From Pseudomonadota bacterium (GTDB lineage Bacteria > Pseudomonadota > Alphaproteobacteria > RF32 > CAG-239), in contig CAKJXZ020000029.1 in assembly GCA_918234285.1 (NCBI GenBank), positions 1-20,830 of the forward strand: a stretch of 20,830 bases of DNA, written 5' to 3'. The number at the start of each line of letters is the position of its first letter. Position 1 is the stretch's first letter. The position numbers were made by a program, and so were the translations under genes. The notes under the pieces are model-generated. The model searched no databases. It was not told the DNA's origin and saw nothing but the letters and a program-made list of their open reading frames with translations. Of this stretch, positions 5,502 through 7,023 are shown piece after piece.

Positions 5502-6839
5502 TTACGGTTTCGGGTGTTTCTGCAACATTTGCCAATACTCATATTCCCACATCAGCGGATTTCCCGGATTATGCTCCAGTGCGGATTGGTGTCGCCAATT
5601 CAAATGACCGATTAAATTGCGTGCATGCGATTCATCTTCAACTTTAACCGCCTTCCAATTGGCCCAACCGACAATCTGCGCCGCCATATCCAGCGCCGCA
5701 TGGTGCGGAATTTCCAACATTCGCTTAAGCTTGCGGGCTTTTTGTTTGAGCATTTCCAAATATATTACGGTTGCGCCCTTCTGGAACTCCGGCAACCGCC
5801 GATAAATCTCCGAAAAATAAAAATCAGGAATCTGTTCTATCTTAAATTCATAATCGGGATAGGCTTGGTGCATTTGTTCCATAAAAAGGCTGTCTTCGCC
5901 GAAGCTTTTGCGGCTTTGAGCAATAAGCAACTTACCGTCATTAAACAGTGCATACTTTCCCTCCTCCGGTGACAACATACCTTTGATTTCCGGCCGGAGC
6001 ACCGAAACACACTTGCTATTTGCAAACAAATCGGTGATATATTGCTGCATTTTTTGCAAAGATGCGGTATCCTTTGTTAGTTTTTGTGCCGCAGCTTCAG
6101 GCGTTTCGTACCATTCAAATTCTTTGGCTTTTTCATACAGTGCATCAATATAATCTTGCGGCACATATTCCAGTTGCATACGCAAATAACTATTATTTTC
6201 CAGCTCAAATTTGAGGATTTTACTAAAGTTGGCTATGGCTTTTTCGTATATTTCCGAAATAAAATAGCGGCCGTCGGCAAACAAAGCCAAATAGTTGCGA
6301 CATTCCGGCTTAACTTTCTCGGTTTTGCATGCCGTCAACAAAACATTGCCCTCATAAAAGCATTCTTTCACAAATTCTTCTTTACTCGGAAACGGCACAG
6401 CCGACAAATCATCCGACAACGGATAATTTTTTAACGCTTGTTCGGAAATATAACGCAACATTTTATCATAATCGAAAAAATCGATTTGCGATTGCGGCGC
6501 ATAAATTTTACTCACTTTGTAACCGCGTATTTTGAGCAGTTTTTTGATTTTTTGCAACATTTCCGGAGCGCCTTTGTCTTGCAAATAGCGCGAATAAATA
6601 AGCGAACCGTCGCTGAAGTAATGAAAAAGCGGATGATAACTGCGCTGCCACAACTTAGCGGTTTTAGAAACAATACGGCAACGTTTGACATTGTGTGTTT
6701 TTTGGAATTCCGCTTCCAATTCTTTGGCATATCTGAATGCCGCCATCGGCTCGAGCGGATTATAGCTCAGACACACACTGTTTTGAAACAGTTGTTCAAT
6801 AATTTCATAAGTAAGAGAGGAAGTTTTGATATCAGTCAT
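5502..6839 (-). CDS. Hypothetical protein (445 aa): three ~112-aa FxDG repeats plus a C-terminal small helical domain resembling the 'glyoxalase superfamily'/DUF5623-type module
   Basis: Long ORF with ATG and AAGGAG RBS. FSDG/FADG/FNDG at aa 75/187/299. aa 364-395 LKQKARKLKRMLEIPHHAALDMAAQIVGWANW. The family resemblance is recalled, not searched. Confidence 0.85.
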   Translation of the reverse strand: MTDIKTSSLTYEIIEQLFQNSVCLSYNPLEPMAAFRYAKELEAEFQKTHNVKRCRIVSKTAKLWQRSYHPLFHYFSDGSLIYSRYLQDKGAPEMLQKIKKLLKIRGYKVSKIYAPQSQIDFFDYDKMLRYISEQALKNYPLSDDLSAVPFPSKEEFVKECFYEGNVLLTACKTEKVKPECRNYLALFADGRYFISEIYEKAIANFSKILKFELENNSYLRMQLEYVPQDYIDALYEKAKEFEWYETPEAAAQKLTKDTASLQKMQQYITDLFANSKCVSVLRPEIKGMLSPEEGKYALFNDGKLLIAQSRKSFGEDSLFMEQMHQAYPDYEFKIEQIPDFYFSEIYRRLPEFQKGATVIYLEMLKQKARKLKRMLEIPHHAALDMAAQIVGWANWKAVKVEDESHARNLIGHLNWRHQSALEHNPGNPLMWEYEYWQMLQKHPKP

Positions 6840-6845
6840 AGTCTT

Positions 6846-6985
6846 AACTCCTTAGCGGGAATATAATCTTTTGATGCCTGCCTGTCAAAAATTCCCTTTT
6901 GTAAAGAGTTTCAACTGTTTGTATTTTAAGCGGTTATTCCATCCGGATTTGCCTAAAGGCAGGCAGCAAGCGTTAACCGTCGCTC
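6846..6985 (-). ncRNA. Candidate structured cis-regulatory 5' leader RNA (two hairpins with complementary loops, anti-SD helix)
   Basis: Helices found by eye: 6979-6974/6936-6931, 6969-6966/6952-6949, 6965-6957/6883-6875 (9 bp perfect), 6910-6902/6854-6846 (covers SD), 6896-6891/6862-6857, 6890-6885/6874-6869. Confidence 0.55.
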
Positions 6986-6993
6986 TGTATAAA

Positions 6994-7023
6994 ACTGTAC
7001 TACATAACAACAAATCTTGTCAA
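6994..7023 (-). promoter_or_regulatory. Putative sigma70 promoter for the leader and 445-aa gene
   Basis: TTGACA (7023-7018), 18 nt, TACAGT (6999-6994). The -35 lies inside the palindrome ATCTTG-T-CAAGAT (7014-7026). Confidence 0.55.

Follow-up and report, generated by a model that had tools for sequence, protein, structure and literature searches.

The stretch of DNA analysed here, referred to as the window, is the 20,830 nucleotides (nt) of contig CAKJXZ020000029.1 (GenBank assembly GCA_918234285.1; GTDB lineage Alphaproteobacteria, RF32, CAG-239). Its minus strand encodes P0001, an open reading frame (ORF) of 445 amino acids (aa) with no internal stop, placed between plsY and the divergent gene pyrH. 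The upstream gap, a divergent intergenic region of 291 nt, holds a sigma-70-like promoter, a structured leader RNA and a Shine-Dalgarno (SD) sequence, AAGGAG, spaced 8 nt from the ATG. An initial annotation, made from the sequence letters, had proposed the ORF, ribosome-binding site, promoter and leader, and all four are confirmed by translation, a site scan and comparison with relatives. The leader has a conserved structure and is tied to a single protein family. It most likely sets how frequently ribosomes start on the gene, and is best read as a new class of structured translational leader, a variant within a known kind of regulator. The coordinates are collected in Table 1.

Table 1. Features of the leader and of the gene P0001 in the window. 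Paired percentages and counts of pairs changed on both sides refer to the alignment of 54 leaders described in the text.
Feature	Position	Strand	Remarks
-35 hexamer TTGACA, leader promoter	7018-7023	(-)	promoter scan; TTGAC at the matching aligned position in 28 of 29 homologue upstream regions
-10 hexamer TACAGT, leader promoter	6994-6999	(-)	promoter scan; TATAAT-like hexamers in relatives at the equivalent position
Structured 5' leader RNA, about 147 nt	6840-6987	(-)	core (model R1) 6868-6987; R1 score 125.8 bits, E 6.4e-28
P1 hairpin	6968-6985	(-)	6985-6981 with 6972-6968; 97.4% paired; 3 of 5 pairs changed on both sides
PK1 5' strand GGUUA, in P1 loop	6978-6974	(-)	partner UAACC
P2 5' strand UGCCUGCC	6958-6965	(-)	with 6882-6875; 94.9% paired; 2 of 8 pairs changed on both sides
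P3 hairpin, 3 base pairs (bp), loop GGAU	6938-6947	(-)	100% paired; CG/UA splits 27/27 and 39/15
PK1 3' strand UAACC, directly 3' of P3	6932-6936	(-)	pseudoknot; 98.5% paired; 5 of 5 pairs changed on both sides
Anti-SD strand AACUCUUUA	6902-6910	(-)	can form 9 bp with the SD region, or hairpin P4 with the SD mimic
P6 5' strand, the SD mimic GGGAAU, after P4 loop	6891-6896	(-)	with 6862-6857
P5 hairpin	6869-6890	(-)	6890-6885 with 6874-6869; 81.8% paired (class-1 register); 3 of 6 pairs changed on both sides
P2 3' strand GGCAGGCA, in P5 loop	6882-6875	(-)	pairs with UGCCUGCC
Internal promoter-like site TTGACA-17-TATATT	6860-6888	(-)	11 of 12 consensus positions, top-scoring sigma-70-like site of the region; within the leader
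P6 3' strand AUUCCC, 3 nt before the SD	6857-6862	(-)	with GGGAAU
SD region UAAGGAGUU	6846-6854	(-)	AAGGAG at 6853-6848; AGGAG invariant in 28 leaders
ORF P0001	5502-6839	(-)	445 aa, no internal stop
Repeat 1, about aa 8-146, most diverged	6402-6818	(-)	motifs LF.NG.CLT and FHYFSDG.LI in the family alignment
Repeat 2, aa 147-271	6027-6401	(-)	hhalign against ATPase N-domain 99.2%, E 1.5e-19
Repeat 3, aa 257-349	5793-6071	(-)	hhalign 86%, E 4.9e-6
C-terminal basic helical domain, aa 350-445	5505-5792	(-)	NF004629 positions 9-62, E 1.6e-6; below curated cut-offs

The case for the leader rests on comparison, because single-sequence folding gives only modest support: the leader alone (6840-6995) folds at -38.2 kcal/mol (z = -2.2), and 4 of 200 shuffles are as good. 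RNAalifold applied to 28 leaders finds P1, the long-range helix P2, P3 and P4, with compensatory change in 9 of 24 pairs. Pairing was counted in alignment A4, which comprises 54 distinct leaders from relatives and gut metagenomes. There, 93.9% of cells are paired and 16 of the 28 pairs have changed on both sides. None of 500 shuffles matched the observed paired-cell percentage or covariation score, and sliding the partners by 1-3 columns lowers pairing to 29-47%. The pseudoknot PK1 varies between pairs such as GAUUG/CAAUC and AGCCG/UGGCG. Long identical stretches are retained in the leaders where the homologous proteins are only 33-50% identical, and the unpaired junction nucleotides are invariant. 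The structured leader that the initial annotation expected homologues to share is present, with covarying helices.

The remaining helices lie closer to the gene. The 3' strand of P2 fills the P5 loop, leaving 1-2 spare nucleotides, so that P2 and P5 together would have the geometry of an H-type pseudoknot. Class-2 leaders, those of second paralogues, have a hairpin at the P5 position built of different letters (GCAAUG/CAUUGC or GCGAUG/CAUCGC). P6 adjoins the SD in 52 of 54 leaders. Its native duplexes have a mean of -7.56 kcal/mol and swapped partners one of -5.74 kcal/mol, a difference that sets the native pairs below all 2000 permutations, and its columns 119/160 switch jointly between GC (16) and AU (8). 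G-U pairs are frequent, and on the sense strand only; column 3/21 of P1, for example, has GU in 29 and AU in 24. Scores of the covariance model R1, described below, are about 24 bits on the reverse strand and about 125 bits on the gene's strand. The frequent G-U pairs and the reverse-strand scores, lower by about 100 bits, indicate that the structure is an RNA on the gene's strand. Three candidate pairings were rejected. A fourth pair in P3 leaves an infeasible 2-nt loop, the 2-bp helix "P2a" proposed by RNAalifold uses the same CC as PK1 and was dropped for it, and an extension of P2 by UUG/CAA was set aside as those letters form P5.

R1 describes the leader core with 119 positions and 25 pairs, and matches once in the window's own genome (2.0 Mb). 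Among 151 genomes of the order, 25 contain matches; these are strong in 23 genomes (n = 28). By coordinate comparison all 28 strong matches lie directly upstream of an ORF of the family, 6 of them being diverged second copies in front of the second tandem paralogue. The RNA is also present at 24 of 28 metagenome loci encoding the family, and the other four are truncated at the 5' end of the gene. A loose pattern scan of genome contigs returned at least 119 stretches, and 9 of the 80 listed loci have strong R1 matches, all of them Alphaproteobacteria or proteobacterium metagenome-assembled genomes by title, from animal guts. The other 71 listed loci have no strong R1 match, so the taxonomic range cannot be gauged from the pattern scan. 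The RNA was not found before a transporter, an enzyme or any other gene family in the genomes, metagenome loci or scanned contigs, and is tied strictly to one protein family. This lends no support to the portability first proposed for the RNA, which is single-copy in its own genome and has strong matches only before this family.

The smallest homologue, of 162 aa (L052, G084:C2:1672-2265), consists of one repeat and the C-terminal helical domain. Its shortened leader keeps P1, PK1, P2, P3 and P5 and lacks the anti-SD, P4 and P6 strands. Three further loci stand apart. Before the first paralogue of the relative G171 (L007, C45), P1-P3 are replaced by AT-rich sequence and P4, P5, P6 and the SD are kept. 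G091 (L053, C8:2439-2556; 26.9 bits) has a decayed 5' half of the leader, in which P1 is present and PK1 and P2 survive in part. A strong terminator-like hairpin comes next, there is no family gene, and the locus looks like the relic of a lost gene. A weak match in G070 (25.1 bits) looks like chance.

The leader is without counterpart in Rfam. Rfam 15, scanned over the whole window at gathering scores, reports only three transfer RNAs (tRNAs), and no match to the leader among the 4227 families compared. The tRNA genes lie at the window's ends: tRNA-Ser(tga) at 122-214, tRNA-Tyr(gta) at 20440-20525 and tRNA-Gly(tcc) at 20571-20644. Relaxing the threshold to E <= 10 over 6700-7200 yields five matches to unrelated families, with 10-23 bits against gathering scores of 45-67. 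The impression that the element resembles no known riboswitch or leader thus holds at both thresholds. A literature search, with motif lists in supplements outside its reach, found no described RNA of this kind.

The position of the leader fits translational rather than transcriptional control. Class-2 leaders begin 7-13 nt past the stop codon of the first gene, too close for a promoter to fit in between, and the element therefore acts within a polycistronic mRNA; a promoter was searched for in class-2 leaders and none was convincing. The third paralogue follows 12 nt after the second without a leader of its own. For the window's leader, two alternative folds differ little in energy: -22.5 kcal/mol for the nested fold that sequesters the SD, and -23.3 kcal/mol for the SD-free one containing P2 and P4.

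The leader promoter (7023-6994) has the form TTGACA-18-TACAGT and agrees with the sigma-70 consensus at 10 of 12 positions. The promoter scan found 5 sites where 4.8 were expected, and therefore carries no weight by itself. Together with the TTGAC aligned in relatives, the scan match upholds the proposal that the gene has its own promoter; the exception among the 29 upstream regions is G171, where the 5' half of the leader is replaced. Transcription would start near 6987. The hexamers of the internal promoter-like site are the conserved helix strands of P5 and P6, and its -10 is not retained in distant homologues. The site is on this account probably a by-product of the RNA helix strands. A sheep-gut metatranscriptome run contributed five short contigs, one of which (221 nt) matches 6747-6916 with two differences and extends upstream of the start expected from the internal site; the contigs reveal no ends. 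About 40-48% of the sampled words of the stretch are present in sheep and bovine gut metagenome DNA runs, from which no inference is drawn.

P0001 had been described as an orphan ORF, but 92 clusters of homologues, with 75 representatives at 50% identity, were found in 1.84 billion proteins. Those with names are hypothetical proteins of uncultured Alphaproteobacteria. Of 201 genomes searched from the same order, 99 contain a match at E <= 0.001 and 36 a true homologue (E <= 1e-30); in the window's own genus 12 of 29 genomes have a true homologue, and the distribution of the gene is therefore patchy. The remaining weak matches align residues ~150-240 with an ORF of ~550-600 aa that is common to most genomes. 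Pfam contains nothing for the protein at E <= 0.01, PADLOC has no family at E <= 1, PHROGs gave only matches at E 0.09-0.37, and tblastn against plasmid and phage collections found no match.

Gene neighbours vary among genomes, and some close relatives share the pyrH-plsY site. Many genomes carry tandem arrays of paralogues of ~445, ~465 and ~290 aa. At the pyrH-plsY site of the relative G124 (L062, C17, 11979-13315) there are three paralogues, two small unannotated ORFs and an ORF with an Xre-type helix-turn-helix, and the window keeps the first paralogue only. Two family members, P0031 (684 aa) and P0128 (536 aa), have other repeat numbers. One of them carries extra N-terminal repeats; the other is extended at its N-terminus and contains the C-terminal helical motif twice.

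The protein contains three repeats. The same motifs occur three times in the family alignment; self-BLASTP of the protein reveals no internal repeat, and the repeats show only in the family alignment and in profile comparison. The family profile was compared by hhalign with a profile of 15 ATPase N-termini, which repeats 2 and 3 match (Table 1). Repeat 1 aligns in fragments only (residues 11-24 and 75-111), in the right order and with a probability below 2%. The ATPase is encoded by a ~560-aa ORF of the T2SSE family (Pfam T2SSE, E 9.6e-66). In the window's own genome it lies on another contig (G000:C17:11008-12624) and has a reciprocal match to P0001 at E 1.9e-5. In the relative G121 (L063, C2, 788-13807) the ATPase comes last in an operon with TcpQ-, secretin- and PilO-type proteins and two unannotated proteins, which indicates that the machine is type IVb-pilus-like. 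A three-paralogue array adjoins rplQ and this operon, with everything on one strand.

Structure comparison gives a similar picture for the third repeat. The AlphaFold2 model of the 445-aa protein has a predicted local distance difference test (pLDDT) score of 92 and a predicted template modelling (pTM) score of 0.85. The nearest VIA-align matches of residues 263-354 are the GSPII/MshEN/EpsE/XpsE N-domains, with Z of 5.0-6.3 over 61-77 residues, under the tool's reliable level. Foldseek of the full model against the PDB returned nothing at E <= 0.001, and the family profile gave three chance-level matches (E 0.18-0.76) to PDB sequences. Pfam T2SSE_N does not match P0001 at E <= 10; the genomes' ATPase itself matches T2SSE only, with no N-domain match at E <= 0.01. 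Judged by profile and family alignment, the protein appears to carry the docking (N1-type) domain of the same genomes' pilus ATPase in three diverged copies, followed by a helical tail. It would accordingly represent a newly recognised family derived from that docking domain. The three repeats first noticed are thus borne out, while the sensor or effector role assigned to them is superseded by the homology to the pilus ATPase N-domain. Elsewhere the N1 domain docks on a stator (GspL/PilM) or binds cyclic diguanosine monophosphate (c-di-GMP) or PilZ, and MshEN has two 24-residue c-di-GMP-binding motifs, according to PMC11656802.

The C-terminal domain is rich in lysine and arginine in its helix. 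Positions 9-62 of NF004629 (PRK05973) are matched by 22 of 24 family members at E <= 0.01 (best 9.7e-7), and positions 7-53 of PF20066 (Glyoxalase_8) by 20 of 24 at E <= 0.1 (best 2.8e-5). The Glyoxalase_8 matches score 12.3-15.5 bits against a gathering score of 23.7 and cover 47 of its 143 positions, and those to NF004629 score 24-27 bits against a cut-off of 156 and cover positions 9-62 of its 237, short of the RecA-like ATPase part, so the protein falls outside both families. The scores are far under the curated cut-offs because only a small module is shared. This is a motif of ~50 residues, K..A..L....I.H..AL...A...GW..W, which is N-terminal in Glyoxalase_8 and PRK05973 (annotated as "DNA helicase") but C-terminal here, where the rest of both families is absent. 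The likeness to Glyoxalase_8 suggested in the initial annotation is real, then, but remote and below the family threshold.

The suggestion that the helical module and its RNA occur on other carriers found no support. No other gene of the window's genome carries the module, and a profile search for the C-terminal domain in longer proteins, confined to those with exact words in common, recovered only the own family. In the ESM Atlas, aa 352-445 reach a top score of 0.85 with a cluster in which 19% of members are Glyoxalase_8, which is a lead only. A literature search turned up no paper naming Glyoxalase_8, PF20066 or DUF5623. Taken as a whole, the interpretation given at the outset stands for the covarying leader, the three repeats and the remote Glyoxalase_8 likeness, but not for the portability of the unit.

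These observations suggest a scheme of autogenous feedback. The promoter would give rise to an mRNA whose leader of ~147 nt adopts the conserved, doubly pseudoknotted fold, in which the P1 loop pairs 3' of P3 (PK1), the 3' strand of P2 lies in the P5 loop and P6 leads to the SD. In the window's clade the anti-SD strand can also form 9 bp with the SD, in a helix that stacks on P6 and P5, and the alternative hairpin P4 would release the SD. The encoded protein would bind its own leader by way of the basic C-terminal helical domain or the last of the repeats. Since it appears to be made of copies of the ATPase docking domain, the protein may also bind the partners of that domain and so modulate pilus assembly. 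Given that the leader regulates, the encoded protein itself is tentatively taken to be the effector, with a probability of about 0.45. This reading is favoured because the RNA is strictly tied to one protein family, because the 162-aa homologue keeps P1, PK1, P2, P3 and P5, and because lysine and arginine abound in the C-terminal helix.

Several points weigh against it. Two pseudoknots and invariant junction nucleotides typify small-molecule aptamers. The anti-SD:SD duplex, at -8.2 kcal/mol in the window's clade, has only -2.8 kcal/mol in others; the pairing is weak in several clades, and the gating logic is therefore not uniform. It is 89% paired with no double-sided changes, which is due to the SD never varying. 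P4 is paired in only 77.9% of cells, and P2 and P5 may coexist as an H-type pseudoknot or alternate. Fold matches to the C-terminal domain are weak (Z ~4.5, VIA-align). The single metatranscriptome contig is the sole evidence from an RNA library, and DNA carry-over is possible for it. The exclusive association gives a protein effector no strong support because single-gene riboswitch candidates exist, among them the Fibro-purF motif, which PMC7668255 reports exclusively upstream of purF.

The main rival reading, possible if somewhat doubtful, is that the leader is a riboswitch instead. A small molecule, for example a nucleotide second messenger governing the pilus, would bind the P1-PK1-P2-P3 core and shift the balance between the SD-free fold (P2 and P4) and the SD-sequestered fold (P5, P6 and anti-SD:SD). 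The complex fold with its two pseudoknots and invariant unpaired nucleotides, the near-equal energies of the alternative nested folds, and a core common to the class-1 and class-2 leaders of different paralogues are all consistent with this. So is a protein that would derive from a pilus ATPase domain binding c-di-GMP elsewhere (PMC11656802), and riboswitch candidates with a single gene are known (PMC7668255). However, beyond the five unrelated hits there is no Rfam match at E <= 10 over 6700-7200, known c-di-GMP classes included. The association expected of a shared metabolite or signal is not seen either, as the RNA was not found before a transporter, an enzyme or another gene family, and the variable gene context suggests no ligand. 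The leader might also act without a dedicated effector, through fixed low translation, mRNA stability, temperature, or a general RNA-binding protein or RNase, or as a processing site in the tandem arrays. An SD adjoining or sitting within stable helices, the intercistronic class-2 copies, and G171, which swapped the 5' half of its leader and still has the gene, would fit such a role. It is nevertheless improbable, since invariant junctions and two pseudoknots kept at ~33% protein identity go beyond the needs of occlusion or stability.

Two other explanations concern what the conserved element is rather than what it responds to. The RNA may be the stable partner of a ribonucleoprotein, cut from or retained on the mRNA and needed for the function of the protein. 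Strict co-occurrence, with one RNA copy per leading gene, agrees with this, and OLE RNA is likewise located beside the gene of its protein partner. However, RNA and gene are separated by neither a terminator nor a processing signal, P6 and the anti-SD strand are coupled to the SD, and the third paralogue lacks a separate RNA copy, all of which make a ribonucleoprotein quite improbable. The conservation could finally reflect signals in the DNA, namely operators or promoters of the divergent pyrH region, where inverted repeats and an internal promoter-like site are indeed present. This is disfavoured as very improbable: only the sense strand tolerates G-U pairs, the pseudoknotted helices show compensatory changes, and the element moves with the gene into unrelated contexts and intercistronic positions.

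The genes surrounding the unit, identified by Pfam, are topA, dprA and plsY on the minus strand of the window and pyrH, frr, uppS and cdsA on the plus strand. A site scan found no terminator-like site in the 65-nt gap between the ORF and plsY (5437-5501), so self-containment is not established at the 3' end. The unit described as self-contained does have its own promoter, but its 3' boundary before plsY is without such a site, and transcription from the leader's promoter may run on into plsY-dprA-topA.

The leader is elaborate, with two pseudoknots and ~120 conserved positions, and its 54 natural variants are sufficient for experiments to be designed at once. The gene family, previously without annotation, points to an unstudied mode of type IV pilus regulation in uncultured Alphaproteobacteria from the guts of ruminants and humans. 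In an ambitious and rather unlikely version, the helical module is an unrecognised RNA-binding domain with the leader as its cognate, and the circuit doses a triple docking-domain decoy that prevents type IVb pilus assembly or sets its timing; or else a new class of signalling-nucleotide riboswitch controls the decoy. With the protein as effector, a function would be assigned to a small helical module that is widespread, whereas a metabolite effector would mean a new riboswitch class.

Among known systems, ribosomal-protein leaders and the thrS operator are autoregulatory mRNA leaders bound by the product of their own gene. The leader described here resembles them in being a structured 5' leader that is limited to the gene or operon of one family, ends at the SD and acts polycistronically. 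It differs in that the protein has no recognised RNA-binding domain and there is no known RNA target to mimic, binding of the leader by the protein being the putative step; it differs from the leaders in Rfam in its two-pseudoknot fold. Candidates of the Fibro-purF type (PMC7668255) are similar in having a few dozen unique representatives, a narrow lineage, a single gene and covariation, but the gene downstream of the present leader does not encode an enzyme whose substrate would hint at a ligand. The GSPII/N1 domains (EpsE N1, XpsE N, MshEN and PilB N1D) resemble the protein through the homology of repeat 2 with the N-domain of the genomes' own T2SSE ATPase and the suggestive fold resemblance of repeat 3. 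Unmatched by Pfam T2SSE_N, and in contrast to the arrangement in the GSPII/N1 ATPases, the domain here appears to have been detached from the ATPase, tripled and fused to a helical tail.

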